From assembly GCA_036269115.1 (NCBI GenBank), contig DATAST010000208.1, positions 2,431-66,430 of the forward strand: a stretch of DNA of 64,000 nucleotides, read 5' to 3'. The translations under genes were made by a program, and so were the position numbers. The notes beneath the pieces are model-generated. The model was given only the letters and a program-made list of their open reading frames with translations, did no database searches and was not told where the DNA came from. Positions within the stretch are counted from its first letter, which is position 1. Every line of letters starts with the position of its first letter. The stretch is from Verrucomicrobiia bacterium. GTDB taxonomy: Bacteria > Verrucomicrobiota > Verrucomicrobiia > Limisphaerales > UBA11358. Positions 6,174 to 42,697 of this stretch are shown one piece after another.

Positions 6174-8054
6174 TCATGTTTGTGCGCTCTGACTGAAATT
6201 TTTGTGTTTCGCTAAATCGGTCCAGCCTGCGACCGATTGATCGCTTCCGCACGAAAGATTTCGGAACAAAAGTCGTTCAACTCCCGCAAGCGTGAGCACA
6301 GCGTTGATTTCTTCGATGTAATTTTTGCGCCCGGAAATATGCTCCTCAACCATGCCCTTGAGGAATTCTTTGTTCCAATAGGGACTTTGGCGGGTTTGGG
6401 GGTCGGTCAGCGACTCTTTTACGTAAGACGCCAGGTCCTTTCGGAACCAGGTGTTGTAGCGGAGGTATCGATAACTGGCAAACCGCTGCATGCACGCGGC
6501 GACTGGACGAAAGACCGGCTCCAATAGCGAAAGCTTCGATGGCAGGCCGTGGTTATAGTAATAATCGAATTTAAACGCGACTTTTGCGGCCTTTTTATTA
6601 AAAGCGGCCGCCGTTCCGGAGGCCCGGCCGAGGTACCCCATGTCCGTCGGAATATTCGCCACGGCTTTGTCGTTGTTCCGGATGAACCGGACGGCAGGAT
6701 CAGAGGATGTACGCACGCTGACAGGCGTCCGGTAGGCAAGCTCCACGAGCTCATTGTCCAGGTAGGGGGTTCGAAGGCGAAGCTGGGAACGGCAGGCGGA
6801 TACGGTGCCGAATCTGTTCCAGGGCATTTCCTTGAAGGCCGCAAATGTGACCGGGTGTTCGTTCCCCCGGCGCAGTTCTCCGGCGTTCAGGTTATGTTGA
6901 ATCAATTCCTTCGATAAGTTAAGCGGCCTAAACATGGAGACGCCTCTGAATATTTCACCGCCGAAGATGCCGGTCAGTCGGACCGGCGACAAGTCACGCG
7001 CCCGTTGGCTGAGATATATTTCGTGGGTTCCGGTGAGCCCGAAATATCCGTCCGTTGCATAAATCGTTTTATCCGCCCATTTCGGGAAGTCCGTAATAAA
7101 ATCGGCGCCGAGTCGCAGAAGCTTGTGTTGCAGGCCACATGCGTCCGCCACACGCCCCGCGAGCCTGGCATCAAGGTTATCTTCGGTTTGACCTGAATAG
7201 GTATAGCAGATCGCGTTCAAGGACGCTCCCGGCAAACACGCCATGATCATCCGCGTGTCAAGGCCAGCCGTCAGCGAGATGCCTAATTTCAAATCAGTTT
7301 CAATGTAGCGGGGCAGAATTCGTCCAAACGTTTCCTGAAAGGCCGAATCGAACGATTCTACCGAGAGCGGAGTCTGGGACTCCCAACTTTCGGGTGAAAA
7401 ATATTTGTGCTTTTTCGAAGTTCCATTAACGAAGGGCCACAACGACGCGCCTGGCAGCAAGGAGATTCCCTTGAATAATGTTCGCTCTTCCAGGGTAGTG
7501 CCATAGGCCAGGAATTGAGCGACGCCCTGCTCGTCGAAACGCCTCAACTCGGGCAGAATGCGCAATAGCGCCTTGGCTTCACTGGCAAAATAGAACGCGT
7601 CGGCTGCCTCGTGCAGGTACAGGCGCTCCATTCCGTAACGGTCATTGAACAAAAAGGCTTTTCCCTTGCGTTTATCAACCAAAATGCCCGTGAACAGGCC
7701 ATTCAGGTTTTCGAAAAACTGGTCGCCTTGTTCTTCATAAAGATGAACGAGCCAGGTTGATTTGCTGGTCCCGGGTTGATGGCCCTTTCGCCGGAGTTCA
7801 ACTCCGATTTGAGGGTCAAGAAAGCATTCACCCGTAAGCACGAGCGCAATATCCTGCTGCTCATTCTGGAAAGGCTGGTCCGCGGCAAAGGCGCTGTCGT
7901 GTATCGCCCATCCACAATAGACTCCCATTTCGGGAACAGAAAATGTTCCAGCTTTGCAAAAGGTCTCAAACCACATGGCCGCGCCCATCGTATTCAGGGC
8001 TTGCTGAAATTCGGCCGCAGGTTTGCGGCTAATAATTCCAAAGATTCCGGGCAT
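6174..8054 (-). CDS. Asparagine synthetase B-family amidotransferase paralog lacking the N-terminal catalytic Cys
   Basis: AsnB-like length and layout, including an SLTAGLDT PP-loop-like motif. The N-terminus reads MPGIFGI (codon CCC) where class II amidotransferases have MCGI. Confidence 0.75.
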   Translation of the reverse strand: MPGIFGIISRKPAAEFQQALNTMGAAMWFETFCKAGTFSVPEMGVYCGWAIHDSAFAADQPFQNEQQDIALVLTGECFLDPQIGVELRRKGHQPGTSKSTWLVHLYEEQGDQFFENLNGLFTGILVDKRKGKAFLFNDRYGMERLYLHEAADAFYFASEAKALLRILPELRRFDEQGVAQFLAYGTTLEERTLFKGISLLPGASLWPFVNGTSKKHKYFSPESWESQTPLSVESFDSAFQETFGRILPRYIETDLKLGISLTAGLDTRMIMACLPGASLNAICYTYSGQTEDNLDARLAGRVADACGLQHKLLRLGADFITDFPKWADKTIYATDGYFGLTGTHEIYLSQRARDLSPVRLTGIFGGEIFRGVSMFRPLNLSKELIQHNLNAGELRRGNEHPVTFAAFKEMPWNRFGTVSACRSQLRLRTPYLDNELVELAYRTPVSVRTSSDPAVRFIRNNDKAVANIPTDMGYLGRASGTAAAFNKKAAKVAFKFDYYYNHGLPSKLSLLEPVFRPVAACMQRFASYRYLRYNTWFRKDLASYVKESLTDPQTRQSPYWNKEFLKGMVEEHISGRKNYIEEINAVLTLAGVERLLFRNLSCGSDQSVAGWTDLAKHKNFSQSAQT

Positions 8055-8084
8055 AAGGCAACAAAGGGGGGAATTCTGAAAAAC

Positions 8085-8159
8085 TGGAGCCGGCGGGAGG
8101 AATTAAACACTCCATCTGCCAAATACAATTTGGCCGCTCTGACGTTGAGCTACACCGGC
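8085..8159 (-). tRNA. tRNA-Thr(UGU)-like gene with a non-canonical D loop and bulged T stem (non-proteinogenic tRNA, or a degenerate tRNA)
   Basis: The minus-strand 75-mer is GCCGGTGTAGCTCAACGTCAGAGCGGCCAAATTGTATTTGGCAGATGGAGTGTTTAATTCCTCCCGCCGGCTCCA. It folds with a 7-bp acceptor stem (one G-U), a 4-bp D stem GCTC/GAGC, a 5-bp anticodon stem GCCAA/TTGGC and the loop ATTGTAT (U33, UGU, A37). CCA is encoded. The D loop lacks GG, the T loop is TTTAATT, and the T stem GGAG(T)G/CCTCC has one bulged T. Confidence 0.5.
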
Positions 8160-8211
8160 AATAAAGCGTTAACAATACGCCATCTTTCTAAAGAGTAAAG
8201 TACAGAGGCGT

Positions 8212-9168
8212 TCAAGCATTCTGTGCCTCCGCGGGGGTGCATGCAGCTTCGGTCATTCGGCTGCGGATTTTCAGAAGTAATCGCAGCACTGGCAACGGCA
8301 GCAGCCCGACGGCGCCTCGATACAATTTCAGCGCAACGAAAAGCCGGCCTTTTAATGTCAGTGGCAGGTAGTACCTTGGAAAATCCAATTGCTCAAAGCC
8401 ATTGCGACGCTTGAACTCTACGAGCGAATCGTCTTTTTTATTACCGTAAATATAGTTGCCATAGACCAGATATCCCACACCCTTCTGCGCGCAAATTTCC
8501 ACAGCTTTGGTGACCAGAGCATTCATGGGCCGCTTGTCCTGGTGAGCGTTCAACGCAATGATAGAAAGAATAAAGGCAACTTTATCCACATAGGTCATCT
8601 TAACGAAGCCAATGAGCTGACCCTCGAAATATGCGCCGATGAATTCGCTGCGCTCCATATAGGTCGCATGTTCGCATTTGATCGCTTCAAAATCCTTTCC
8701 ATAATGCCAAAATTTCCTGCCCTGTCGCACCGGCATCTCGTTGCAAATATTATGGATGCCCCGTGCTAATTCGTCGTCGAACGGCACGGCTTTGACCGTA
8801 ACGCCGCGTTTCGTGGCACGGCGGGTATTTTTGCGGGCTTCCTGCGGCAGCTTTTCCCACCAGGCTTCGAAGGTCGAAGTCGGCACAACAGCGTAATTTT
8901 CCCATTCCAAATGATATCGAAATCTGGGGGTGACATCCGGAGGCCTTTGAAAAAACGTGAGGACGTCCGCCTTCAGCCCACTACGTTTCATTTCGGGGAT
9001 AAACTGGGCCGGATTCGGCACCAATTCGCCTTCGGCCAATTCTTCATCGCGTATGGAGGCGATTTTGATCCAACCGCCTTTAACGATTACCGTGCGCCCG
9101 TCAATTTCGGCCGCCGGCACTTGCGTGTTCTTCCCTTTTATCCGGGTTTCAACAAAAGTCACAGCCAT
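8212..9168 (-). CDS. FemAB/CelD-like GNAT-fold acyl/aminoacyl transferase
   Basis: The pattern ARKNTRRATKRGVTV ... GQLIGFVKM ... KRPMNALVTKAVEICAQKGVGYLVYG ... SLVEFKRRNGF matches the Acetyltransf_6/FemAB-like layout. I chose the ATG at 9168 (MAVTFVE) to avoid overlapping the upstream asnB-like stop. Confidence 0.6.
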   Translation of the reverse strand: MAVTFVETRIKGKNTQVPAAEIDGRTVIVKGGWIKIASIRDEELAEGELVPNPAQFIPEMKRSGLKADVLTFFQRPPDVTPRFRYHLEWENYAVVPTSTFEAWWEKLPQEARKNTRRATKRGVTVKAVPFDDELARGIHNICNEMPVRQGRKFWHYGKDFEAIKCEHATYMERSEFIGAYFEGQLIGFVKMTYVDKVAFILSIIALNAHQDKRPMNALVTKAVEICAQKGVGYLVYGNYIYGNKKDDSLVEFKRRNGFEQLDFPRYYLPLTLKGRLFVALKLYRGAVGLLPLPVLRLLLKIRSRMTEAACTPAEAQNA

Positions 9169-9175
9169 AATAAGG

Positions 9176-11035
9176 TCAATGAGTGCTGCGCAACCATTTC
9201 TCAAACACCACAAGACTGAAGAGCAATTTATGGTTGTCGTGCCGGCGGGATTGATGATCCGCCAGCAGTTTTTTCACAGGTTTGGGGTCCAGCAGGGAAA
9301 ACATCGCAGATTCTTCGTCCAATAATATTTCCGTCATTTTGCCTTTGGCGGTCGCGGTGAACCAATCGTCCACGACGTTCGCGGCGAAACCGCGTTTCTT
9401 GCGACTCATTATTGCGCGGGGCAGGAATTTTTCACAAACGCGCCGGTGCAGCCATTTGCGTTCACCGGCACGGATTTTGAAACTGGCATCCAATCGTTGG
9501 GCATATTCAACGACTGTTCGATCCAGATACGGTACGCGCGCTTCAAGGCCGTGGGCCATCGAAAGCTTGTCGGCATACATTAGCAATTCGTCAGGCAACG
9601 AGGAACGAATCTCGGCGAGCTGAAATCCGCCGAGTTCATCCAGCTTTTCCATCTGCGCCTTTATTGGTTCCAGAAATTCGACCAATCCGCGAAAGTGGCC
9701 GTTTGCATCGCGGAAAAGGCTGTTTACGGTTGCCCCCGGCACGATCGAAAATACGTCCTGGTACCGGGTCAATCGGTCGGTTACCCCCAGCGACTCGACG
9801 CCGCGTTTTAGCGTTTCATTGCGCGGCAGTTTTGAAACCACGGACGCCGCCAGCAATTGAATCCCCTTCGGCATGCCGCGCCAGTAGTTTCCATATTGGA
9901 CGCCCAAATGCCGTTTATAGCCGCCGAACAGTTCGTCCGGTCCCTGGCCGATCAAGGCCACCTTGACATCCTGCCGCGCGCGCTGGCAGACGAAATACAT
10001 CGGAACAACGGAGGATGCGGCCACGGGTTCCTCCAGAAAACGGACGATATCAGGCAGCGATTTTTCAAATTCCGCCTGATCCAACCGGACCTGCGTATGA
10101 CGCGCGCCAAGGACCGATGCAGTTTCAGCGGCATCAGACAATTCATCGTCGGCGAAGCTTGTCCCATAGCCGGCGGTGTAGGCGGGCCAGTTGCGGCCAT
10201 GCTCGTTCATCAGAGCCAGAAGCAGTCCGGAATCCAATCCCCCGCTGAGCAGTACGCCCACCGGCACATCTGCGAGAAGATGCCGTTTGACGGCAGCACG
10301 ATATAACTCAAATAATTGCTCCGTAGCTTCGCGATCCTCCAATGGATTTGAAAACGGTTCGGGCCTGAAATCATACCAGCGTTCCTCACGGCATTGGCCG
10401 TTCTCGACGACAAGCATCGTGCCTGGAGCGAGCTTGCGAACGCCCTGAAAAATGGTCAACGGGGACGGCGTGTAGCGGAAGCGGAAAAAAAGATTGAGCG
10501 CCACGGGATTTACTTCCGGCCGGGAGTTTTCCGCCGCGAGTACCGGACGGATTTCGGAGCCAAAACTTAATTTGCCATTTGTCACCCGGTAATAGATGAG
10601 CTTGATGCCCATTGGGTCCCGTGCGACGATGAGGCGCTTGCTCTTCACATCCCAGATGGCAACCCCGAACATGCCGTTAAGATGATCAAATACTTTCGTG
10701 CCCCATTGTTTGTACCCATAAATGATGACTTCAGTATCTGAGCTTGTTTGAAAAACGTGGCCGTGGTTTTCCAATTCGGCCCGCAGTTCCTTGTAATTGT
10801 AAATCTCGCCGTTGAAAACGATCCAGATAGACTTCTGCGCATCGGACATCGGCTGATGGCCGCCAGACAAATCGATGATAGAGAGCCGGCGAAAACCGAA
10901 ACCGAGCGATCGGTCGAAGAAATATCCGTCATCGTCCGGACCACGATGAACGATCGTCCCGGTCATTCGCCGGATCGTCTCTGAATCTACAGGCTCATCG
11001 CCAGCGAGTTTAATTTGGCCGCAAATTCCGCACAT
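9176..11035 (-). CDS. Asparagine synthetase B-family glutamine-dependent amidotransferase (canonical)
   Basis: N-terminal MCGICGQ (Cys nucleophile), the RGPDD motif, and the SGGLDS PP-loop. Confidence 0.85.
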   Translation of the reverse strand: MCGICGQIKLAGDEPVDSETIRRMTGTIVHRGPDDDGYFFDRSLGFGFRRLSIIDLSGGHQPMSDAQKSIWIVFNGEIYNYKELRAELENHGHVFQTSSDTEVIIYGYKQWGTKVFDHLNGMFGVAIWDVKSKRLIVARDPMGIKLIYYRVTNGKLSFGSEIRPVLAAENSRPEVNPVALNLFFRFRYTPSPLTIFQGVRKLAPGTMLVVENGQCREERWYDFRPEPFSNPLEDREATEQLFELYRAAVKRHLLADVPVGVLLSGGLDSGLLLALMNEHGRNWPAYTAGYGTSFADDELSDAAETASVLGARHTQVRLDQAEFEKSLPDIVRFLEEPVAASSVVPMYFVCQRARQDVKVALIGQGPDELFGGYKRHLGVQYGNYWRGMPKGIQLLAASVVSKLPRNETLKRGVESLGVTDRLTRYQDVFSIVPGATVNSLFRDANGHFRGLVEFLEPIKAQMEKLDELGGFQLAEIRSSLPDELLMYADKLSMAHGLEARVPYLDRTVVEYAQRLDASFKIRAGERKWLHRRVCEKFLPRAIMSRKKRGFAANVVDDWFTATAKGKMTEILLDEESAMFSLLDPKPVKKLLADHQSRRHDNHKLLFSLVVFEKWLRSTH

Positions 11036-15537: not shown

Positions 15538-17478
15538 TTATGGCGCAGGAACGGCCGTGTTGATCGACGGCGGATACGGAACGTAATTCGCCGTAACCGT
15601 GAGATTGGACGCCGGCATGGTGACGGTGGTATTGGCCGAGTTGGTATTGGCAATATCCTGGCCGCTCCAATATGCAAACACTGCGTTTGTCACCGTAGCT
15701 GGTGCATCGGCCGAAATGTTGACGATCTGGCCGTTCGTGTAATTATTACTGCCTGTGCCATCTATTACAGTCAAGGAGTACGTCGGCGGTGTCGAAGTCG
15801 AATTCGTATTGGCCAGCGGATATGGATACGGCAGCGGCGTGTACCCGGGTTTGACGGTATTATCGAAAAAGTCTCTCCCGGCCATGATGATTGGATAAAA
15901 ATAACCCCATTGGAAATACCCTATGTTTGGGGCAAACCCGGCGCTATACCCGTTGTTTGTATTATCCCATTGATACCACGGCTCAACGATCTGGTTAGGC
16001 CAATTCGTTTTGCCAGTCACAGTATCGTACGGCTGGCCGCTGCTGGGCGCGTTGTCACCAATTAAATCGCATAAGCCTCGTCCCGGCTGATCAAGTTGTC
16101 CGTAACATTTATAAATGGCGTATGTGTCTCCGGTATTCCAGGTGATTATTCCGCCAAGGTGATTCGGCGGGTAATAAATATCGTGAACGCCATTCGATTC
16201 AATCACTGAAAAATTAACGAGGTTCTCGTTCTCGTAATAATTGTTTCCACCTTGCGTTACATCTACCAGTTCGTACGCCCAATTTGTATTTCCGCTCCCA
16301 GGCCATCCACCCACCCATCGGCCAACCGCCCAATTCGCGCTTGAATCCGTGAGCCAATTCTGTCCACTCGGCCCGGTATAGGTACCGGTTGCCACCAAAC
16401 CCCCGTTGTTATCCCAGGGATTAAGACCGTTTGCCCCGCCATAGGGAACCAACGCCTGTGTCGCGCGAAACTGGCTGAGTCCTATGATTGTGCTCCATCC
16501 AACGAAAATGTTGCTGTAAATGACACCGGTACCGCTTCGGAAACCGAGAGTGTTGCCTTGATTGGTGTACCCAACGGCGTTGTTAATAAAGAAATTATCA
16601 TAAATTTCGCAAGCCCGCCCGCCCCTGATTCGTCCGCTCGTTTCGGTGCCGTGAAACTGAAAAATCATATTCGTGACACAATTGTGCCGGAACACCACAC
16701 GACTACCCGCGCGCGCATCGTTCACGGCGCTCCAATAATTGGGTCCATTGTACGAGAATCCGCAGTCTTCTATATAAATCCACCAATTAGTAGTGCCGTA
16801 CGTCACGGGTGTCGCATAGGATATGTCGCCATACTCGTTCTCACCGTCAGCAGCCGAGTATCCGCCAAGCGCGCCATTGTAACACAAAACCTGATTTGCA
16901 AAATATGTAGTGGGAAACAGGCAATGATCAATACAGCCATATGTTCCATCGAAGAATGCAACCCCAACATCGGCCAAATTCTGAAATAGACAACCCGTCA
17001 CCCGGCATACCGGGCAGAACCCGTTAAATTGGACTTCCGGCTTGTAATCGGGATGATTTACGCCCTGACTCGGGCCATCTTGAAACTGAAATCCATTCAA
17101 TTCGCATTTCGTGTAATTTGACTGCGTATTCCATTCAATCAGATATTCAAAACTCGAGCTGGGAATCTCGTCAACTATGATGGTTTGTTTACTGCCCGCG
17201 CCAACCAGGGAAATGTTATTGTTAATGACCAAAGTGCTTGTCCATGTGGCGGTGCCGGCAGGAAGTTGAACCACCTCGCCAGGCACGGCCGAATTAATGG
17301 CCCCCTGAACGGCACTTTCAGTGAGGCTGGGCACATTGGTTACTATTACTGCGGCATTCATGCCGTTAGAAAGGCCAAAAATCAGAAAAATTGACAGAAT
17401 CTGCCAAAAATGGACTGCGCCGTTCACCATCGGACGTTGCGCGGAACCTGGAGAAATCGCTGTTTGTGAACAAATCAT
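15538..17478 (-). CDS. Secreted right-handed beta-helix (pectate-lyase-fold) protein with a C-terminal bacterial repeat domain
   Basis: Signal-like N-terminus. AINSAVPGEVVQLPAGTATWTSTLVINNNISLVGAG is typical of parallel beta-helix proteins. The C-terminal YSLTVIDGTGSNNYTNGQ ... YWSG ... TVTANY resembles an InlB-B/Listeria-Bacteroides repeat. The true start may be the internal Met at 17430. Confidence 0.6.
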   Translation of the reverse strand: MICSQTAISPGSAQRPMVNGAVHFWQILSIFLIFGLSNGMNAAVIVTNVPSLTESAVQGAINSAVPGEVVQLPAGTATWTSTLVINNNISLVGAGSKQTIIVDEIPSSSFEYLIEWNTQSNYTKCELNGFQFQDGPSQGVNHPDYKPEVQFNGFCPVCRVTGCLFQNLADVGVAFFDGTYGCIDHCLFPTTYFANQVLCYNGALGGYSAADGENEYGDISYATPVTYGTTNWWIYIEDCGFSYNGPNYWSAVNDARAGSRVVFRHNCVTNMIFQFHGTETSGRIRGGRACEIYDNFFINNAVGYTNQGNTLGFRSGTGVIYSNIFVGWSTIIGLSQFRATQALVPYGGANGLNPWDNNGGLVATGTYTGPSGQNWLTDSSANWAVGRWVGGWPGSGNTNWAYELVDVTQGGNNYYENENLVNFSVIESNGVHDIYYPPNHLGGIITWNTGDTYAIYKCYGQLDQPGRGLCDLIGDNAPSSGQPYDTVTGKTNWPNQIVEPWYQWDNTNNGYSAGFAPNIGYFQWGYFYPIIMAGRDFFDNTVKPGYTPLPYPYPLANTNSTSTPPTYSLTVIDGTGSNNYTNGQIVNISADAPATVTNAVFAYWSGQDIANTNSANTTVTMPASNLTVTANYVPYPPSINTAVPAP

Positions 17479-19105: not shown

Positions 19106-20398
19106 TCAGGTTTCAGCAATGTGCGGACGTTCTTCTTTCGCGACAGCAGTTTCACGGGCAGGCAAGAGGCAACGATACGCATCCAACAGTTTCTTGCTTA
19201 CCACAGACCACTGGAGGTCATTTTCCACTCTTTTGCGGCCAAAATCACCCAACTCCCGGCGCATCGCCGGTGAATCCATCAGCTTGTTGATGGCTTCGGC
19301 GAATTTCAATTCGTCGTTGGGCGGAACATAAAGCGCGGCCGACTGGGCGGAAAACCTCGTCTCCTTCAAGTCAAAGGTGACAATGGGTTTGGCGTAGGCC
19401 ATGTACTCCATCACCTTAATCCACGTCGATACATCATTTAATGGGCTGGAGGGGTCGGGGTCGACGCAAATATCCGCGGCGCCCAAATTGGAGCGCAAGT
19501 CTTCTTCCGACACAAACCCCGGCAACTCGACATGCTGCTCGATCTTTAAATCCGCCGAAAGGGTCCGCAAGTCCTCAAGAGAATCTCCAGTTCCCATAAT
19601 GACACAATGAAAGTCGCCCCGGTTCAACGTGTATTTCAGCTTGTGCAATGAGCGAAGCAGGTAATCCACGCCGTCTTGCGGATTCAGGCAACCGATATAA
19701 ACGAGAATACATTTATTCATTGCCCGCAGCCGCGGGCTGGGTTCGGCCTGGGTCATGCGCAACTTGTCCGGGCCGTTGCGAACAACAAAAATGCTTTCCG
19801 GCTTTTTCTTTCCCCTGGTGATGTGAACCTGTTTGTAGGATTCATTTGTCGCTATCGTCACGGTGGCCAACTTGAGGCTGCACCATTCAGTGATACCCAA
19901 CATACGGGTCAATATCCCCTCGCCTGCCCCATAACGCGACCGATAGAGTTCCGGACACAAGTCATGATGGTCGAAGACATATTTTACGCCAAACAATTTG
20001 AACGGAAGCGCCGCCAGAAAAAGCGTATCGGGCGGGTTATGGGAATGAATTGCATCAAAACCACGTCGCACAAAAATACCAGCGCTGATCAGGAAGCATG
20101 CGCTCGTAAAATAGAAATACTCGACCAGATAGCCCAGGAACGACTTGGCGCGTAGCAGAATGCGCCCGACGAAACCTGTGTCGTCTGAAGAGGCCTTTTT
20201 GAAAAGCTCTATTCGCGGCACTCGATAGACACGAACATCGCCGACAGTTTCAAACCGCGATTGGCCCGGCTTTGCCAGGCAAATGACACTCACGTCATAG
20301 CCCTGAGAAGCCAGGAGCGTCGCCTCGTTACGAACCCGAATATCCTGCGGGTAGTGGTTCTCTACCAGCATTACAACTCTACCAACAGATTCCATCAT
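19106..20398 (-). CDS. Glycosyltransferase family 4
   Basis: GT-B layout. MLVENHYPQDIRVRNEA is the N-terminal motif of the WbuB/EpsD-like GT4 subgroup. Its start overlaps the upstream gene's stop region by 20 nt. Confidence 0.7.
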   Translation of the reverse strand: MMESVGRVVMLVENHYPQDIRVRNEATLLASQGYDVSVICLAKPGQSRFETVGDVRVYRVPRIELFKKASSDDTGFVGRILLRAKSFLGYLVEYFYFTSACFLISAGIFVRRGFDAIHSHNPPDTLFLAALPFKLFGVKYVFDHHDLCPELYRSRYGAGEGILTRMLGITEWCSLKLATVTIATNESYKQVHITRGKKKPESIFVVRNGPDKLRMTQAEPSPRLRAMNKCILVYIGCLNPQDGVDYLLRSLHKLKYTLNRGDFHCVIMGTGDSLEDLRTLSADLKIEQHVELPGFVSEEDLRSNLGAADICVDPDPSSPLNDVSTWIKVMEYMAYAKPIVTFDLKETRFSAQSAALYVPPNDELKFAEAINKLMDSPAMRRELGDFGRKRVENDLQWSVVSKKLLDAYRCLLPARETAVAKEERPHIAET

Positions 20399-22652
20399 AA
20401 ATAGCAGGTTTGCGGCCTCCGTTTTGAAATAGTCTTACAAAATCAATGACGATGCATTTTCCATCCACGTCAGCCATCGCCGTCTCAAATTCCAGTTGTT
20501 TTTTGCAAATGACCAGGACCTCCGCGTCCTTCATCATCTCAGTGACCGATGATTTCATAATCGCGGAAATATGCGGGAGCGCGCGTTCGATGTATTGTTT
20601 GTTTTTGCCGCGTATCGCGGAAATCGTGACGTCGCTGTCATAGACGGTGACCTGATAACCCTTGCCGATCAACCGTTCAATAAAGGTCACAGTCGGACTT
20701 TCGCGCAAATCGTCACTGTCGGCCTTGAAACTCAATCCGAAAATACCGATTTTGGTCTTGCCGGTGCGGCGAACCATGTCATAGGCCCGTTCAATTTGAA
20801 GCTGATTGCTTTCCAGAATGGATTCCAGGAGGGGCAATTGCAAGTCGTGCTGTTTGCCGAGGTGGGTCAGGGCTCGCAAGTCTTTGGGGAGGCACGAACC
20901 GCCAAAAGCAAAACCGGGCTTCAAATAATAAGGCGAAAGGTTAAGCTTGTGGTCTTTGCAGAAAATGTCCATGACCCGCCAACTGTCCACCCCAAGCGCC
21001 TTGCAGAGCGCTCCAATCTCATTCGCAAATGACACCTTTAATGCATGGAATGAATTGCACGCATACTTGATGCTTTCCGCCACCCGGATGGGCACGAACT
21101 CCAGCGGAGCGTCAATATCCCGGTATAGCATCGAAACGACGTCGGCGGCGCGGCTTTCGGAAGCGCCGATAATGGTAAAGGGTGGTTTATAGAAATCGTT
21201 CACAGCGGTGGATTCCCGCAGGAATTCGGGATTCATGCAAACGCCAAAATCTTTGCCGGCTTTCTTTCCAGAGAATTTTTCCAGCAACGGGATAATTTGA
21301 CTTTCAACGGTTCCCGGAATGACTGTGCTGCGAATGTTTACAACGTGATAATGATCGGTCTTTTTCAGTAAAGCGCCGATGTCTTCGCAGACCCGGAACA
21401 CCTGTCGCAAGTCCAGGCTGCCGTTATCGTTGCTGGGAGTTCCTACACAGACGAGAGAAATCTCCCCCAATACCGTGCACTGAGTCCTGGCGCGCAATCG
21501 GGCTTTGGCGATCATCGTCTGCAGGATTTCCTCCAACCCCGGTTCCACAATCGGACTTTGACCGGAATTGACCAGGGCCACCTTGCCGGGGTCCGAATCA
21601 ATACCTGTAACGTCATATCCCTGCCTGGCGAGACATGCCGCGGTCACTGAACCGACATATCCCATTCCAAAAATTGTCACTTTGGTAACGCTATTAACTT
21701 CACGTTTGGCGGGCCCTTCTTGCCTGTTCTGGCGCGGCATGCTTGCGGTGCAGTGAGCCGCAATTTCCTTCGGCAACGCCTGCCAATACTTTCCCGCGTA
21801 GTTTTTTTGAACGTATTTCAAAAATCGCTCATAGAATTCCACCGGATACTCGTCACGCGCGCCGGGCTGGCCATTCATGGTCATATAATCCGGGTGAGAA
21901 TTGAGCAACACCATGCCGCCGCGTTCGGCGATCCAGTCCAATTTCCTCATCCAAATATCGGGTTGCTGCTCCTGGAGCACGAGGAACAAGGTCGAATCCT
22001 GCGGCAACGTATAGGGAAGTTCCACATAACCGCTGCGCCCATTGCCCGCCGATGTTCGCGGGACCCAAAAGGGAAAGATGGTGCCGACGTCGTCGGGTTG
22101 TGGCTCGAAAGGATCGGTGTCAAAGGTGCAGGACGCATAATCCACGTCCAGGTCGTGGATCCAATCCAGATTATGAAACATGAATCCAGACCGAAATCCG
22201 CGGGCGTCCCAGGCACGCAAGTAACGGTTGATATGGACTGCGCCGTCTTTGAACTTTTCCCGGCTCTGAAAAAGTTTGCCATCGTGTTTCAAGTCCTGCA
22301 CGCCCACTTCAAATCCGTTTCGGCGCAACTCCTCCAACAAGTCCAGCGAGACACTGTAATCGGCTTCCGGAATGAAATTGAAAGACGATCGGAAACCCAT
22401 TTCCATTTCAAGCTCCATCAACTGCCGGCATTTGGCCAACCCGCGGGCGTTTTCAACGTCGTGCGTCAATACGAGCGCAAACTTTTTCCCGTCGGGCCAA
22501 CCCGGCCAATCGGCCGGCCGTAATCCAGCGGTTTCCTTGATCGGCCACACGTCCTGATGCATTTTGCGTGTGCGGCGCGCGACCGTCCGACGCACGGCCA
22601 TGCGCAAATTCCAGGGGAGATATGGTTTAAGACCGTAATAGAGCGTATGCAT
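20379..22652 (-). CDS. Fusion protein: N-terminal polysaccharide-deacetylase-like domain plus C-terminal UDP-sugar 6-dehydrogenase (WbpA/TviB/UgdH family)
   Basis: Residues from about 326 onward read KVTIFGMGYVGSVTAACLARQGYDVTGID ... GGSCLPKD, which is the nucleotide-sugar dehydrogenase signature including the catalytic Cys. The N-terminal ~320 aa (FALVLTHDVE ... GFRSGFMFHN) looks like a deacetylase/hydrolase beta/alpha barrel. No stop codon separates the two parts. An in-frame GTG at 21680 could also start a stand-alone dehydrogenase. Confidence 0.7.
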   Translation of the reverse strand: MHTLYYGLKPYLPWNLRMAVRRTVARRTRKMHQDVWPIKETAGLRPADWPGWPDGKKFALVLTHDVENARGLAKCRQLMELEMEMGFRSSFNFIPEADYSVSLDLLEELRRNGFEVGVQDLKHDGKLFQSREKFKDGAVHINRYLRAWDARGFRSGFMFHNLDWIHDLDVDYASCTFDTDPFEPQPDDVGTIFPFWVPRTSAGNGRSGYVELPYTLPQDSTLFLVLQEQQPDIWMRKLDWIAERGGMVLLNSHPDYMTMNGQPGARDEYPVEFYERFLKYVQKNYAGKYWQALPKEIAAHCTASMPRQNRQEGPAKREVNSVTKVTIFGMGYVGSVTAACLARQGYDVTGIDSDPGKVALVNSGQSPIVEPGLEEILQTMIAKARLRARTQCTVLGEISLVCVGTPSNDNGSLDLRQVFRVCEDIGALLKKTDHYHVVNIRSTVIPGTVESQIIPLLEKFSGKKAGKDFGVCMNPEFLRESTAVNDFYKPPFTIIGASESRAADVVSMLYRDIDAPLEFVPIRVAESIKYACNSFHALKVSFANEIGALCKALGVDSWRVMDIFCKDHKLNLSPYYLKPGFAFGGSCLPKDLRALTHLGKQHDLQLPLLESILESNQLQIERAYDMVRRTGKTKIGIFGLSFKADSDDLRESPTVTFIERLIGKGYQVTVYDSDVTISAIRGKNKQYIERALPHISAIMKSSVTEMMKDAEVLVICKKQLEFETAMADVDGKCIVIDFVRLFQNGGRKPAIYDGICW

Positions 22653-25003: not shown

Positions 25004-26107
25004 TCAAGCTAAATGACGATATAATGCGGCACCGATCACTCGCGAAAGGCCCACGGGAAGCGCGCGAAATACCCGGTTGTGCCAGCCCGTTGCTCCATCT
25101 GTATCCGTGACAAACCTGTTCCGTCGCAAATCATATTTCACGTATTCAATTTTATGCTCCCGGGCGCCCCAATGCAGTTTGAAACGCCGCAGACCTTCGT
25201 GGTCGATAGACGTCCTGCCCAAATCCAGCGTCCTGGCGCCGTGACGCCTCAGGCGTTTGATCGCCTCCCACATTACCAGGCTCGGGCCCCGAAATTGTTG
25301 GAATGTGTCATCCGAAGCGCCAAACTTGTAAACCGCCTGGGCTCCCCATTGAAAATAAACCGACGCCGCTACGGGCCGGTCCTGCCAATGCGCCACAACC
25401 ACCATGCCGAGGTCGCGGGAGAGAATGTGCCGAAAGATACTGCTGAAAAATCCGAACGGTTGTGGCGGCAAACCATGCTTCTGGCGCGTTTTGCAATGCA
25501 ATGAATAGAATGTTTTCAGGGCATCCAATCCGCTGGAAACGGTTACCGTCAAACCGGATTTCTCAGCCTTGCGAATTGCGCGGCGCGTCGAACTGTCCAT
25601 CCGCGCAAATAACGCGTCTTCGCCTGCCTCTAAATCCAGACGATGGCCGTAAAACGAAACCGCCGGAGGTGCACTCGGGAACAACTCACGCCCGCCCCGA
25701 AACTCGACGAAATTCCATCCCCTGGACTTTCCCAATGCCACCGCACTTTGAACCATCCGATAGGCCCAGGCGCAGTCATCGTAAAGCGGCCCGCACTCGT
25801 CGGTAAACGGAAGCCCGATGCCTCTGCGTCCCGTAAGCTCGCTGTCTACCTCCATGAGCGGAAGCACACCACGAACGATGCCTCCGTCCTCCACAGTCAA
25901 ATAGACCGGCCTGTAGCCATACGCGCCTTCCAGCGTTTTGGCCCACGCGGCACTGTGGAAAAAGGAATAATCCGAAAAATCCGCCAGCGACGCCCCCCAG
26001 TTAGAAGCCTGGCCAGGATTTACTACGTGCACCGAAGCCGCGACCGCCCGTCCTGCCTGTGAGCCGTCCCCATAGCGGGGCAGGCATCTATTTACCGCCG
26101 TGGCCAT
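25004..26107 (-). CDS. FemAB-related protein (PEP-CTERM-locus type)
   Basis: FFHSAAWAKTLEGAYGYRPVYLTVEDGGIVRGVLPLM ... GLPFTDECGPL ... RRAIRKAEKSGLTV ... FKLHWGA is the FemAB/GNAT duplicate layout. The track ORF reaches 26155. I chose the ATG at 26107, but the start is uncertain. Confidence 0.65.
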   Translation of the reverse strand: MATAVNRCLPRYGDGSQAGRAVAASVHVVNPGQASNWGASLADFSDYSFFHSAAWAKTLEGAYGYRPVYLTVEDGGIVRGVLPLMEVDSELTGRRGIGLPFTDECGPLYDDCAWAYRMVQSAVALGKSRGWNFVEFRGGRELFPSAPPAVSFYGHRLDLEAGEDALFARMDSSTRRAIRKAEKSGLTVTVSSGLDALKTFYSLHCKTRQKHGLPPQPFGFFSSIFRHILSRDLGMVVVAHWQDRPVAASVYFQWGAQAVYKFGASDDTFQQFRGPSLVMWEAIKRLRRHGARTLDLGRTSIDHEGLRRFKLHWGAREHKIEYVKYDLRRNRFVTDTDGATGWHNRVFRALPVGLSRVIGAALYRHLA

Positions 26108-26636
26108 GTTCGCCTGCAAGTGTCGCGTTAACATGGTCCGCCTGTTTGCCCGCAAGTGACCGGATGGGTCTGGCCGGATTGCCTGCTACCACCACGTCGG
26201 GTGGCACATCCCGGACTACCACGCTGCCGGCTCCGATCAGCGCATTCTCGCCGATCGTAATGCCACATAGAAGAGTCGCGCCCGAACCGATGGATGCGCC
26301 TCGTTTGACCACTGTAGGAAGACACTCCCAATCCGCCTCCGTTTGCAACCCCCCGTTCCCGTTGGTTGCACGCGGATACATATCATTCGTGAATGTCACA
26401 TTGTGACCCACGAAAACATCATCCTCAAGGACTACACCCTGGCACAGAAAGCTATGACTGGAGATCTTGCAGCGGTTCCCGATCTTAACCCCCTTCTGAA
26501 TCTCCACGAACGGTCCTACCTTCACATCGTCTCCCAGTTCGCAACCGTAAAGGTTTGCGTAACCGAACAAGCGGACATTCCGGCCCAGCTTCACATCCGG
26601 AGCGATCCGGACAAAAGGCGCATCAGCAGCGTTCAT
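26088..26636 (-). CDS. Left-handed beta-helix (hexapeptide) N-acetyltransferase, WbpD/WlbB-like
   Basis: Hexapeptide repeats are visible throughout (IGNRCKISSHSFLCQGVVLEDDVFVGHNVTF ... IGSGATLLCGITIGENALIGAGSVV). It sits next to a WbpB-like oxidoreductase. Confidence 0.75.
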   Translation of the reverse strand: MNAADAPFVRIAPDVKLGRNVRLFGYANLYGCELGDDVKVGPFVEIQKGVKIGNRCKISSHSFLCQGVVLEDDVFVGHNVTFTNDMYPRATNGNGGLQTEADWECLPTVVKRGASIGSGATLLCGITIGENALIGAGSVVVRDVPPDVVVAGNPARPIRSLAGKQADHVNATLAGEHGHGGK

Positions 26637-40657: not shown

Positions 40658-42697
40658 TCATGCCGATCGATTCTTAATCTCGGTCAAAATTCCGGCGATC
40701 ACTTCGGCCCTGGGCTTTACCCCCAGGTTGCCTTTGCCGTGAACGCGAACGCTGACGTTTCCGGCGTCCATATCCCGACCGCCAATCACGAGCATCGTAT
40801 GGACTTTAGCCTTTTCCGCTTCCTGGATTTTGCCGTTGATTTTATTGGATGAAAAATCGGATTCCGTCCGCACGAAATTGCCCCGCAATTCGTTCACAAT
40901 TTGCTTTGCATAGCTCACCAGTTTTTCGTCATCGCCAATCGTCATGACCCTGACCTGTTCGGGAGCGAGCCAGAGCGGGAAATTGCCGGCGTAATGCTCA
41001 ATCAGGAATCCAATGAACCGTTCGTGCGTCCCGAGTGGAGCCCGATGGATGCACAATGGCGTCTTTTCGGAATTATCGCGGTCGCGATAGACCAGGCCGA
41101 ATTTTTTGGGGACCGCGAAGTCTACCTGGTTGGTGGCGATGGTAAACTCGCGGCCAATGGCGCTCCAAACCTGCACGTCAATCTTCGGGCCGTAAAACGC
41201 GGCTTCATTCGGCACTTCCACGTAATTGATGCCGGATTTTTGCAGGACCTCGCGCACCATATTCTCGGTTTGAATCCAGAGTTCGGGTTCATTGACGAAT
41301 TTCTGGCCAAGCTTGGCCGGATCGTGCGTGCTGAAACGCATCTGATATTTTTCCAGGCCGAAGATCTTGAAATATTTCAGGTACATTTCGTTGACCGCGT
41401 TGAACTCCTCCGCGAATTGTTCCGCCGTGCAATAAATGTGAGCATCGTTCATGTTCAGCGAGCGAACGCGCATGAGGCCGAACAATTCGCCGCTTTGCTC
41501 ATAGCGATAGCAGCAGCCGTACTCGGCCAGGCGCAACGGCAAATCGCGATAACTGTGCGGCTCCGCTGCAAAAATGCGGTGATGGTGCGGGCAGTTCATG
41601 GCTTTGAGGTAGTAATTCTCAGTTTCTTCCGAAGAGGCGTCTAAGGCAGCCAGCCAATTTTTTGTCGCCTTGTCCTGAGCAAACGCCTCATCTCTGAGCT
41701 TTGCAGCTATTTCAACCTGTGAAAAACCCTCCGCAGACAAACGTTCAAAGTTGAGGACGCTGTCAAGCCTAGCAGACGCAATCTCAAGCTCCTTACGCAC
41801 CTGTTTTAATTTCTCCTCCCGCTTTCCCTTCTCCCCGCTTTCAAGAGAGAGCTTCAACGGCGGGAACATCGATTCCTGATACAGCGGAATATGTCCGCTT
41901 GTGACGTACATTTTTTCGCGCGCAATATGCGGTGTTTTCACCCGCACATAACCGGCCGCAAATTCCGTTTCCTTGGCCAACTTTTCCAGTTCCTCAACAA
42001 TGGCCGTGCCTTTCGGCAGCCACAACGCCAGCCCGGGCCCGACGTATTCGGTATCGATCGCAAACAGTCCCATTTCCGCGCCGATTTTCCGGTGGTCGCG
42101 CTTTTTCGCCTCTTCGATCATGGTGAAGTAGGCGTCCATCTCAGTCTTGTTCTTGAACGCGGTGCCGTAAATGCGCTGGAGCTGCGGATTGCGTTCGTCG
42201 CCCTTGTAATAGGCACTGGCGACGGTGGTGAGCTTGAACGCGCCGATATTGCCCGTGCGCATCACATGCGGTCCGGCGCAGAGATCGAGGAAATCACCGT
42301 TCTTGTAATAGGAAATCGGTTCGCCTTCGGGAATGGCTTCCAGGTTGCCCATCTTGAATTTGCTCGGATTGCCCGGGCGCTCGCCCAAACCGCCGAGTCG
42401 GCCACTTTCGGAATCTTTTATAGCCTGCTCGCGAGTCACGACGATTTTCTCAAATGGGTTGTTGGCCTTGATTTCCTTTTTCATCTCCTCCTCGATTTTT
42501 GGAAAATCTTCGGGTGAGATGCGATGTTTCAGGTCAACGTCGTAATAAAATCCGTTTTCAACAGGCGGCCCGGCGGCGAATTGTGCGTCCGGCCAAAGGC
42601 GCAGGATGGCCGTGGCCATGACATGCGCGGCGGAATGCCGGATACGCTCCAATTCGGTCATTTTGGCTCGATCATCAAGTGTCTTACGGTCTTGCAT
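40658..42697 (-). CDS. thrS: Threonine--tRNA ligase (lacks the N-terminal TGS domain; ~80-aa insertion in the catalytic core)
   Basis: RHSAAHVMATAILRLWP ... NGFYYDVDL (editing domain), YLKAMNCPHHHRIF, RVRSLNMNDAHIY, and the C-terminal anticodon-binding domain. Confidence 0.9.
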   Translation of the reverse strand: MQDRKTLDDRAKMTELERIRHSAAHVMATAILRLWPDAQFAAGPPVENGFYYDVDLKHRISPEDFPKIEEEMKKEIKANNPFEKIVVTREQAIKDSESGRLGGLGERPGNPSKFKMGNLEAIPEGEPISYYKNGDFLDLCAGPHVMRTGNIGAFKLTTVASAYYKGDERNPQLQRIYGTAFKNKTEMDAYFTMIEEAKKRDHRKIGAEMGLFAIDTEYVGPGLALWLPKGTAIVEELEKLAKETEFAAGYVRVKTPHIAREKMYVTSGHIPLYQESMFPPLKLSLESGEKGKREEKLKQVRKELEIASARLDSVLNFERLSAEGFSQVEIAAKLRDEAFAQDKATKNWLAALDASSEETENYYLKAMNCPHHHRIFAAEPHSYRDLPLRLAEYGCCYRYEQSGELFGLMRVRSLNMNDAHIYCTAEQFAEEFNAVNEMYLKYFKIFGLEKYQMRFSTHDPAKLGQKFVNEPELWIQTENMVREVLQKSGINYVEVPNEAAFYGPKIDVQVWSAIGREFTIATNQVDFAVPKKFGLVYRDRDNSEKTPLCIHRAPLGTHERFIGFLIEHYAGNFPLWLAPEQVRVMTIGDDEKLVSYAKQIVNELRGNFVRTESDFSSNKINGKIQEAEKAKVHTMLVIGGRDMDAGNVSVRVHGKGNLGVKPRAEVIAGILTEIKNRSA

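Follow-up and report, generated by a model that had tools for sequence, protein, structure and literature searches.

A conserved tRNA-Thr-like gene paired with a predicted aminoacyl-tRNA-dependent transferase in bacterial polysaccharide loci

The tRNA-like gene in its operon

The stretch of DNA analysed here, a window of 64,000 nucleotides from a Verrucomicrobiia bacterium (assembly GCA_036269115.1, contig DATAST010000208.1), carries an extracellular polysaccharide biosynthesis locus on its minus strand. Within this locus, a tRNA-Thr(UGU)-like gene occupies an intergenic gap of 157 nt between a gene ending at 8212, which encodes a tandem-GNAT protein termed GNAT1, and a gene starting at 8054, which encodes a divergent AsnB-like protein termed AsnBdiv (Table 1). 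This tRNA, which we refer to as private, and the GNAT1 gene travel together in many soil and freshwater bacteria, and the conserved pair points to an undescribed tRNA-dependent decoration of extracellular polysaccharides with amino acids.

ARAGORN reported a tRNA-Thr(tgt) at 8085-8159 (-) as the sole tRNA of the window. RF00005, the only Rfam family matched in these 64 kb, was located at 8088-8159 (-) with 45.5 bits (gathering threshold 29, E-value 1.7e-6, model positions 1-71 of 71). Both programs thus call a tRNA where the initial annotation had described a 75-nt cloverleaf between a transferase-like gene and an AsnB paralogue. The RNA comprises 72 nt plus an encoded CCA, its 5' half being parsed as GCCGGUG/UA/GCUC-AACGUCA-GAGC/G/GCCAA-AUUGUAU-UUGGC and its 3' half as AGAU/GGAG(U)G-UUUAAUU-CCUCC/CGCCGGC/U/CCA. 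The 7-bp acceptor stem includes a U6.G67 pair, the D and anticodon stems are perfect, the anticodon loop reads U33-UGU-A37, and the elements G1-C72, C2-G71, G35 and U36, which are recognised by threonyl-tRNA synthetase (ThrRS), are present. Unusual features are a T stem whose 5' strand has a bulged U (an insertion relative to the Rfam model), a variable loop of 4 nt, a D loop of 7 nt without G19, and U56. The minus-strand sequence therefore agrees with the first description in its stems, anticodon loop, encoded CCA, ThrRS elements and T-stem bulge. Of the G18-G19 pair that had been described as lost, G19 is indeed missing, but a single G is kept at the G18 position. With these features the window copy departs from the arrangement of canonical elongator tRNAs, in which G18-G19 meets psi55-C56 above a regular 5-bp T stem. 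The minimum free energy of the fold is -30 kcal/mol (z = -3.7), and none of 200 shuffled sequences was equally stable.

Table 1 Features of the window and groups of homologous loci referred to in the text. Coordinates without a locus number are those of the window.
Feature	Coordinates or loci	Strand	Evidence
tRNA-Thr(UGU)-like gene	8085-8159	-	ARAGORN, Rfam RF00005, cloverleaf fold, family covariation, border conservation
GNAT1, 318-aa tandem-GNAT protein	8212-9168	-	homologues, AF2 model, Foldseek, weak Pfam, tRNA linkage
AsnBdiv, divergent AsnB-like protein	6174-8054	-	translation, weak TIGR01536/TIGR03108, PF13537/PF00733
Canonical glutamine-hydrolysing AsnB-type amidotransferase	9176-11035	-	TIGR01536 460 bits, TIGR03108 467 bits
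True Fem/CelD-like gene	25004-26155	-	PF13480 66 bits, PF02388 60 bits, TIGR03019
Housekeeping threonyl-tRNA synthetase	40658-42697	-	TIGR00418 thrS 573.6 bits, cut-off 383.65
Extracellular polysaccharide biosynthesis locus	~714-28665	-	NCBIfam and Pfam scans
tRNA family members with glycine anticodon	L042:5024-5098, L055:5034-5108, L024:4941-5015, L171, L083
Clade of GNAT1 loci without tRNA	L045-L048, L050, L060, L061, L065-L067, L069, L074, L076, L077, L080
GNAT2 examples	L049:2922-3936; L203:3001-4001

Linkage and conservation of the tRNA family

With each GTDB species represented by one genome, a scan retrieved 80 homologous loci (numbered with L) that encode a GNAT1 homologue of 47-83% identity, with titles naming Verrucomicrobiota, Acidobacteriota, Betaproteobacteria, Nitrospirae and other phyla (at least four phyla). 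Of these, 77 extend far enough downstream to be assessed, and ARAGORN and Rfam together detected a member of the tRNA family in 61 of them, nearly always 50-250 nt downstream of GNAT1 and on the same strand. According to tblastn, the conserved core consists of GNAT1, the tRNA and a Cys-less AsnB-like gene, and a canonical AsnB gene is often, not always, found upstream. We also searched in the reverse direction with a 26-nt motif of the T arm and acceptor stem, GGAGYGTTYRAWTCCTCCCGCCGGCT, which contains no protein information. This yielded 120 metagenome contigs (L081-L200), and GNAT1 was encoded directly upstream on the same strand in 100 of the 102 contigs with at least 400 nt of upstream sequence; in L109 it lies slightly further from the tRNA. 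The tRNA body is hence found essentially only beside GNAT1 and outside housekeeping tRNA contexts. The synteny search proposed with the initial annotation, which asked whether related loci keep a tRNA-like gene beside the transferase gene, was answered in the affirmative from both sides.

The sole motif-defined tRNA without a preceding GNAT1 gene is that of L105 (3997-5338). There, a 404-aa open reading frame (ORF) without a match to the GNAT1 profile or to Pfam is located upstream of the tRNA and downstream of a Wzx-like flippase gene, and the tRNA itself has GG in the D loop and the Watson-Crick acceptor GCCGGCG. An Rfam scan at the gathering threshold of 18 seemingly tRNA-less loci recovered a tRNA in L034 only. 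Seven more loci (L014, L057, L096, L099, L128, L160 and L191) were scanned by E-value. This revealed tRNAs not called by ARAGORN in L160 and L128; L014 and L096 gave none, and the extra GNAT paralogues of L057 and L191 are not followed by a second tRNA. Two tandem GNAT1-type paralogues with a single tRNA after the second gene occur in L057:4001-5922, L191:820-2619 and L099. Conversely, tandem duplicates of the private tRNA gene, with copies 90-190 nt apart, are present in L051:4997-5235 and L079:4992-5329. In L096 (~540-615, -), where neither ARAGORN nor Rfam made a call, a 3' T-arm/acceptor motif directly adjoins the end of the region that matches GNAT1 and may be a truncated tRNA copy.

An alignment of 51 distinct homologues showed that 99.5% of the cloverleaf positions expected to pair do so, with compensatory double changes in eight pairs. 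None of 500 shuffles scored as high, and controls in which the pairing was slid reached 29-59%. The compensatory changes that had been named as a check on function are therefore present. Five acceptor pairs (G1-C72, C2-G71, G4-C69, G5-C68 and 7-66) are invariant in all 51 sequences, in contrast to 3-70 and 6-67, which vary and are not determinants. The identity set published for bacterial ThrRS consists of G1-C72, C2-G71, G4-C69, G5-C68, G35 and U36, with G34 also listed for the GGU isoacceptor that was studied (PMC9976931 Table 1); the acceptor determinants, G35 and U36 are all found in the window copy. In comparisons of close relatives, the conserved block coincides exactly with the extent of the tRNA, and the spacers on either side have diverged.

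These data bear on the alternative that the element is a decaying tRNA pseudogene or an old integration-site remnant. The T-stem bulge, U56 and the missing G19 are non-canonical, as would be expected of decay. However, the odd features are themselves conserved in more than 150 loci, the stems covary, the tRNA stays while the spacers diverge, and the gene sits inside an operon between two co-conserved genes. Tandem duplicates as in L051 and L079 also argue against decay, and NCBIfam and Pfam scans found no integrase among the annotated ORFs of the window locus. The proposed alternative is thus contradicted by conservation and covariation, and we regard it as hardly credible.

For the anticodon loop and the D and T arms, we tallied approximately 160 parsed members. 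The anticodons were UGU (76), CGU (64), AGU (13) and NCC (6), and never GGU. G35-U36 was kept in 153 of 160, and position 34 was U, C or A, never G. U33 and a purine at position 37 are, as far as known, universally conserved in decoding tRNAs. In this family, U33 is replaced in 29 of 160 members (18%; C in 19, A in 10), position 37 is a pyrimidine in 13, and two further members have a 9-nt anticodon loop, so that the family as a whole does not keep the 7-nt loop with U33 and purine 37 that the window copy has. CCA is encoded in 126 of 160 members. Signatures of the family are a one-nucleotide T-stem bulge (U or C), a 4-nt variable loop and U73. The bulge occurs in all 160 parsed members, of which the L081-L200 copies were retrieved via a motif that contains it; among the 51 aligned, genome-derived members it occupies the same position in 49 and lies one position off in both copies of L079 (GGA[U/C]GG). 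About 140 of 160 members (~87%) lack GG in the D loop, which makes the loss of G19 common, not universal, and U56 was found in 7. The earlier argument that the changes converge on the D/T elbow and the EF-Tu binding surface accordingly stands for the G19 loss and the family-wide bulge, but not for U56, which is a minority state. As judged from the sequences, this pattern would be expected for an RNA selected for charging by ThrRS and for recognition by a partner protein, not for decoding.

A sub-lineage (L092, L099, L137, L161, L176, L177, L182 and L125) has C6-G67, corresponding to the acceptor GCCGGCG, in place of U6.G67, and four of its members (L092, L099, L137 and L176) are linked to the most divergent GNAT1 genes, which are 38-41% identical.

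The same tallies address the possibility that the element is an ordinary translational tRNA-Thr(UGU), a decoder of ACA or a codon supplier for the operon, that came to lie there by chance. Its canonical 7-nt loop, U33, A37, encoded CCA and good Rfam score fit such a role; the anticodon loop of the window copy is fully decodable, which also speaks against a function outside decoding, and the census of tRNA-Thr genes covers the 64-kb window. Yet the anticodon flips between close relatives: L001, L004 and L110 have CGU in place of UGU at the same position, and others have AGU or UCC. The loss of U33 in nearly a fifth of the members, the two 9-nt loops and the lack of any GGU anticodon do not suit a decoder, nor does the occurrence of the same body after GNAT1 across phyla, in 100 of 102 copies, instead of in tRNA or rRNA operons. 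In addition, a sister system described below contains tRNA-Ser-like genes that have no anticodon loop at all. We therefore consider an ordinary translational tRNA very unlikely. The idea of a rare-codon supply was rejected, as ACA accounts for 17.9% of the Thr codons in the operon and 15.9% in the rest of the window, which is no real enrichment.

Six members carry a glycine anticodon (UCC or ACC). In the sister loci L042 and L055, C3-G70 has also changed to G3-C70, so that both hold the full bacterial glycyl-tRNA synthetase (GlyRS) set of G1-C72, C2-G71, G3-C70, U73, C35 and C36 (per PMC9976931); L024, L171 and L083 show the anticodon change alone. A joint switch of anticodon and acceptor stem can hardly be explained if selection does not act on aminoacylation.

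This observation is also relevant to a further explanation, namely that the element is a tRNA-shaped cis element, a signal for processing, stability or regulation (RNase P/Z punctuation or a ThrRS-binding operator) that donates no amino acid. It would agree with the constant position of the tRNA between two ORFs, mostly directly before the AsnB-like gene and also in the rearranged locus L039. A scan around the tRNA gene gave promoter and terminator counts at background level; though uninformative as such, it leaves no separate promoter or terminator standing out, as this explanation would have it. Punctuation, however, needs neither aminoacyl-tRNA synthetase (aaRS) elements such as G35-U36, the four acceptor pairs and U73 nor an encoded CCA, and it leaves both the coordinated glycine switches including G3-C70 and the pairing with an enzyme of aminoacyl-tRNA-transferase fold without explanation. 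Moreover, a clade of loci without the tRNA (Table 1) keeps both ORFs ~50 nt apart without such a signal. We consider a pure cis element improbable, if slightly less so than a decoding tRNA.

Predicted partner proteins and a sister system

The ORF of GNAT1 extends to a TTG at 9213, and its homologues begin at the ATG at 9168. We found 3505 homologues in the protein collection, the top 120 being 66-100% identical. The protein has no NCBIfam match, its Pfam match is to the generic GNAT family PF00583 and weak (25 bits), and a sequence-profile search of the PDB gave a best E-value of 0.36. When the AlphaFold2 (AF2) model (pLDDT 77.7, pTM 0.70) was searched against the PDB with Foldseek, the top 15 matches were all aminoacyl-tRNA-dependent transferases. 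The best of them were Sba18 and Sbb17 (E-values 3.5e-11 to 9e-11, 13-15% identity, TM-scores of ~0.5), followed by L-PGS, A-PGS/MprF domains and the FemX of Weissella (FemX_Wv, TMq 0.55), with FemA lower. E-values ran from 3.5e-11 to 1e-9 for Sba18/Sbb17, L-PGS/MprF and FemX, and up to 5e-7 once A-PGS and FemA are counted in. An invariant motif of GNAT1, E251-F252-K253-R254-R255-x-G257-F258, resembles the C-terminal Phe-Lys motif of Fem-type enzymes, of which it is a possible counterpart. Catalytic residues of this motif are K305 in FemX_Wv and F328/K329 in DhpH-C (PMC12945691), and the family of the Fem-like protein encoded elsewhere in the locus (Table 1) has R307-x-F309-K310. On the basis of the model, GNAT1 appears to be a separate family of the double-GNAT aminoacyl-transferase fold, and we predict that it is an aminoacyl-tRNA-dependent transferase and the obligate genomic partner of the tRNA.

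AsnBdiv starts with MPGIFG and thus has Pro in place of the catalytic Cys2, and its PP-loop is a variant that reads S-L-T-A-G-L-D-T-R. Against TIGR01536 it scores 137 bits and does not reach the cut-off of 267. In 113 homologues, Pro2 is found in nearly all (MPGI[VATF]G), many residues of the N-terminal domain are conserved, and the PP-loop follows S-L-T-G-G-L-D-[ST]-R with G264, D266 and R268 invariant. Since Pro replaces the Cys nucleophile, AsnBdiv cannot act as a glutamine amidotransferase. The PP-loop is compatible with ATP binding, which is no proof of it, and the protein probably still adenylates a carboxylate. The AsnBdiv gene follows directly downstream of the tRNA in most loci (65 of 101 in the motif-defined contigs), and a GT4 glycosyltransferase gene lies between the two in Udaeobacter-type loci. 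These proteins form a distinct, unnamed AsnB-like family with homologues in more than 110 loci, where they always travel with GNAT-tRNA pairs.

It is conceivable that AsnBdiv, and not GNAT1, is the main user of the aminoacyl-tRNA: it would adenylate a carboxylate, e.g. that of a uronic acid, and join it to the alpha-amine of Thr-tRNA, so that the tRNA would carry an N-acylated intermediate from which GNAT1 would then transfer the N-acyl-aminoacyl group. The most consistent position of the tRNA is just before the AsnB-like gene, L039 and L057 included, and the retention of the PP-loop TGGLD[ST]R and of N-domain residues despite the exchange of the glutaminase Cys for Pro would suit such a reaction. 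The same AsnB-like gene also follows the tRNA-Ser-like gene of the GNAT2 system (see below), and the locus encodes a UDP-glucose dehydrogenase. On the other hand, the interposed GT4 gene of Udaeobacter-type loci separates tRNA and AsnB-like gene, and the linkage of the tRNA is stronger to GNAT1 (100 of 102) than to the AsnB-like gene. We hold this order of reactions to be unlikely, though the least remote of the alternatives considered here, and favour GNAT1 as the main user of the charged tRNA.

A second system provides a natural control for the interpretation of the GNAT1-tRNA pair. Locus L049 contains two GNAT-tRNA pairs in tandem, and the upstream protein, GNAT2 (294 aa), is 34% identical to GNAT1 and belongs to a family of ~292 aa with at least 416 homologues. 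In nine of nine loci (L049 and L201-L208), the GNAT2 gene is followed by a type-II tRNA-Ser-like RNA, which measures 91 nt in L049. Its body has the acceptor GGAGAGG...CCUCUCC, G73 and a long variable arm, and eight of the nine copies encode CCA. The anticodon arm is an 8-bp helix with compensatory changes in seven of its eight pairs, which is capped by a GNRA tetraloop in six of nine (GCAA in five, GUAA in one) and otherwise by GUCA or a short U-rich loop. ARAGORN labels the RNA 'tRNA-???', and its match to the Rfam tRNA-Sec model (37 bits) lies below the gathering threshold of 47. An MPGI-type AsnB-like gene follows in most GNAT2 loci. Without an anticodon loop this RNA cannot decode, and the identity of tRNAs for seryl-tRNA synthetase (SerRS) is independent of the anticodon (PMC9976931). 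Judging from the two families, each private tRNA appears to have kept exactly what its synthetase needs, G35-U36 for ThrRS and no anticodon for SerRS. Sub-threshold 'Plastid-psbl-rps4' matches at L204:3915-3967 and L049:3887-3934 (-) correspond to the reverse complement of the T and variable arms and are almost certainly an artefact of the tRNA-like sequence.

Proposed function and genomic setting

Together, these results make it probable that the element is a functional, operon-encoded, ThrRS-charged, non-decoding tRNA that supplies threonine to GNAT1 for the aminoacylation of a polysaccharide or of a precursor sugar. The RNA would be part of the transcript of the polysaccharide operon and undergo tRNA-type processing. 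The normal cellular ThrRS would then charge it with threonine, as the retention of all bacterial ThrRS identity elements suggests; the ThrRS encoded outside the polysaccharide locus, whose annotation held up (Table 1), is presumed to be the charging enzyme. The tRNA would not be used for decoding, considering the relaxed constraints on the anticodon loop in the family and the conserved bulge where EF-Tu contacts the T stem; for the window copy, the putative exclusion from translation is read from this family-level evidence and from its own T-stem bulge. Threonyl-tRNA would serve as donor for GNAT1, which may place Thr onto a sugar amine or hydroxyl of the polysaccharide repeat unit or of a nucleotide- or lipid-linked precursor. 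AsnBdiv would probably carry out an ATP-dependent amide formation on the same substituent, e.g. between a carboxylate and the free alpha-amine of the residue. As the AsnB-like gene is associated with both GNAT-tRNA systems, it may be speculated that it performs a second amide-forming step on the installed residue. The core of the initial proposal, a dedicated tRNA for the neighbouring transferase, is supported by synteny and compensatory changes, and its further elements, namely that ThrRS charges the tRNA, that EF-Tu and the ribosome do not use it and that a glycan is the acceptor, are inferences. With somewhat less confidence, we extend this to a widespread, horizontally mobile three-gene module of a tandem-GNAT protein, its own tRNA and a Cys-less AsnB-like ligase that decorates extracellular polysaccharides with Thr, Gly or Ser by means of private tRNAs charged by housekeeping enzymes and released from the ribosome.

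Several observations weigh against this proposal. GNAT1 had been introduced as a FemAB/CelD-like protein, and by sequence it is not: its match to FemABX (PF02388) reaches 14.3 bits (E = 0.018) and misses the gathering threshold of 24, and among 28 homologues PF02388 matched weakly in 7 and PF13480 in 14, all below threshold. Comparison of a GNAT1 profile with the Fem-like protein of the locus and its family by hhalign returned probabilities of 1.6-2%, which is weak negative evidence owing to shallow alignments (Neff 1.7). Membership of FemAB by sequence was consequently rejected, as NCBIfam, Pfam, the PDB profile search and hhalign were all insignificant or sub-threshold, and the likeness of GNAT1 to Fem, MprF and Sba18 is one of predicted fold alone. 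Tandem GNATs that use acetyl-CoA (VipF and the clavulanate tandem GNAT) also appear in the Foldseek list, at lower ranks. Among the genes of the locus, we recognised no aminotransferase that would form a free amine on a sugar. Furthermore, about 16 loci, in which GNAT1 and the AsnB-like gene are ~50 nt apart, lack a tRNA within 4 kb. All of them but L014 form one contiguous clade of the GNAT1 tree, mostly of Acidobacteriota (Table 1), which indicates a single loss or relocation. In this clade the private tRNA is either dispensable, with a housekeeping tRNA being used, or encoded elsewhere in the genome.

Dedicated non-proteinogenic tRNAs are, to our knowledge, rare, the staphylococcal tRNAGly lineage being the described case. 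These non-proteogenic (NP) tRNAGly (NP1-NP3) serve FmhB, FemA and FemB in the synthesis of the pentaglycine bridge of peptidoglycan; they have determinants in the D and T arms, bind EF-Tu weakly and form a lineage described as confined to staphylococci (PMC7826273). Like them, the tRNAs described here keep aaRS determinants, have idiosyncratic D and T arms with an altered EF-Tu region of the T stem, and are paired with a double-GNAT protein, here a predicted aminoacyl transferase. They differ in that the deviation of the T arm is a bulge instead of weak 49-65/50-64/51-63 pairs, the amino acid donated would be Thr, with Gly or Ser in variants, and an extracellular polysaccharide locus takes the place of peptidoglycan as the target context. 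Here the tRNA gene sits side by side with that of the transferase, the two being inherited together in different phyla, and the organisms that carry them belong to diderm environmental phyla such as Verrucomicrobiota and Acidobacteriota. With its Thr identity and these hosts, the family lies outside the staphylococcal tRNAGly lineage, and the sequences point to an independent origin.

The closest structural matches of GNAT1 are enzymes of natural-product pathways, among them those for streptothricin-type antibiotics. Orf11, a homologue of Sba18 and Sbb17, converts streptothrisamine to glycylthricin using Gly-tRNA (PMC12945691), and the Sba18/Sbb17 structures (PDB 9wqy, 9wqw) are in complex with streptothrisamine. 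GNAT1 shares the double-GNAT architecture with Orf11/Sba18/Sbb17, PacB, VlmA and DhpH-C/DhpK (PMC12945691), and the chemistry proposed for it is of the same kind; the Orf11/Sba18-type enzymes, in contrast, draw on the housekeeping aminoacyl-tRNA pool and belong to actinomycete secondary metabolism, whereas GNAT1 is encoded in polysaccharide loci. A similar fold is found in the aminoacyl-phosphatidylglycerol synthases (MprF, DUF2156; PDB 4v34-4v36; Foldseek E-value 6e-10, TM ~0.5), although GNAT1 has no Pfam match to this family. MprF enzymes, which are fused to a flippase domain, transfer amino acids from housekeeping aminoacyl-tRNAs to a component of the cell envelope, namely lipids, and this likeness suggests that an O-ester acceptor is also possible for GNAT1. 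Finally, the FemAB/CelD-BcsL proteins (TIGR03019) of PEP-CTERM-type exopolysaccharide loci occupy the same genomic niche and share the motif 'RRAxKxGVxV' at the start of the second GNAT domain; GNAT1 differs from them in staying below the profile thresholds, with an hhalign probability of 2%.

Retained aaRS determinants are also a feature of tRNASec, which has EF-Tu antideterminants in the 7-66/49-65/50-64 region, and of viral tRNA-like structures, some of which lack an anticodon and are still charged; both are aminoacylated without entering the usual EF-Tu and decoding pathway (PMC9976931). Unlike these, the tRNA family described here has neither a UCA anticodon nor an acceptor/T geometry of 8/5 or 9/4, it stands in no SelB context, and its proposed function lies entirely outside translation. 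In the open-access and bioRxiv literature we found no report of polysaccharide loci in which a tRNA gene accompanies a GNAT or Fem-like gene, and neither a cluster-encoded or dedicated tRNA nor polysaccharide targets are mentioned in a 2026 review on enzymes that depend on aminoacyl-tRNA (PMC12945691).

If the proposal is correct, it would represent the first tRNA-dependent aminoacylation of glycans and, apart from staphylococcal cell-wall synthesis, the first case of tRNAs dedicated to a non-translational task. A second, independent and far wider family would make private tRNAs a recurrent answer to competition by EF-Tu. It predicts Thr, Ser or Gly substituents on the polysaccharides of abundant soil Verrucomicrobiota (including Udaeobacter-type metagenome-assembled genomes) and Acidobacteriota, by a route not previously linked to glycans. 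The identity-element pattern resembles a natural mutagenesis experiment, in which ThrRS elements were kept and decoding elements lost, with the SerRS paralogue having no anticodon loop. It would thereby offer a natural collection of tRNA bodies orthogonal to translation that aaRS still accept, and such natively charged, ribosome-ignored tRNAs and their cognate transferases could be useful parts for synthetic biology. For annotation, these tRNA genes are now counted as ordinary tRNA-Thr, undetermined or pseudo tRNAs, and GNAT1 is labelled 'GNAT family N-acetyltransferase' or hypothetical.

The surrounding locus is one for extracellular polysaccharide biosynthesis. According to NCBIfam and Pfam scans, it encodes GT4, GT2 and GT9 glycosyltransferases, a Wzy-like polymerase, a Wzc-like co-polymerase/kinase and a priming phosphotransferase, as well as a UDP-glucose dehydrogenase fusion, sugar oxidoreductases/SDR and an LbH acyltransferase. 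The canonical AsnB gene, whose product has an MCGICG start and the motif SGGLDSG, is located directly upstream of GNAT1. Of the two FemAB-like genes initially assigned to the operon, the one at 25004-26155 is so by sequence, whereas the GNAT1 gene falls below the PF02388 threshold. The former scores 144 bits against TIGR03019 (pepcterm_femAB), under the cut-off of 260; its homologues are 367 aa long with source names CelD/BcsL or FemX, and its real start is probably internal to the ORF. ARAGORN and Rfam found no tRNA beside this gene in the window. In the 757-aa product of the ORF at 20379-22652, the UDP-glucose-dehydrogenase-type domain spans residues 324-735 only, and the N-terminal ~320 residues are without annotation. 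The ORF at 15538-17478 encodes a 646-aa protein with a C-terminal InlB B-repeat-like region as its sole match, and homologues of 27-30% identity are encoded on the opposite strand near the module in the Acidobacteriota loci L046, L047, L060 and L066.

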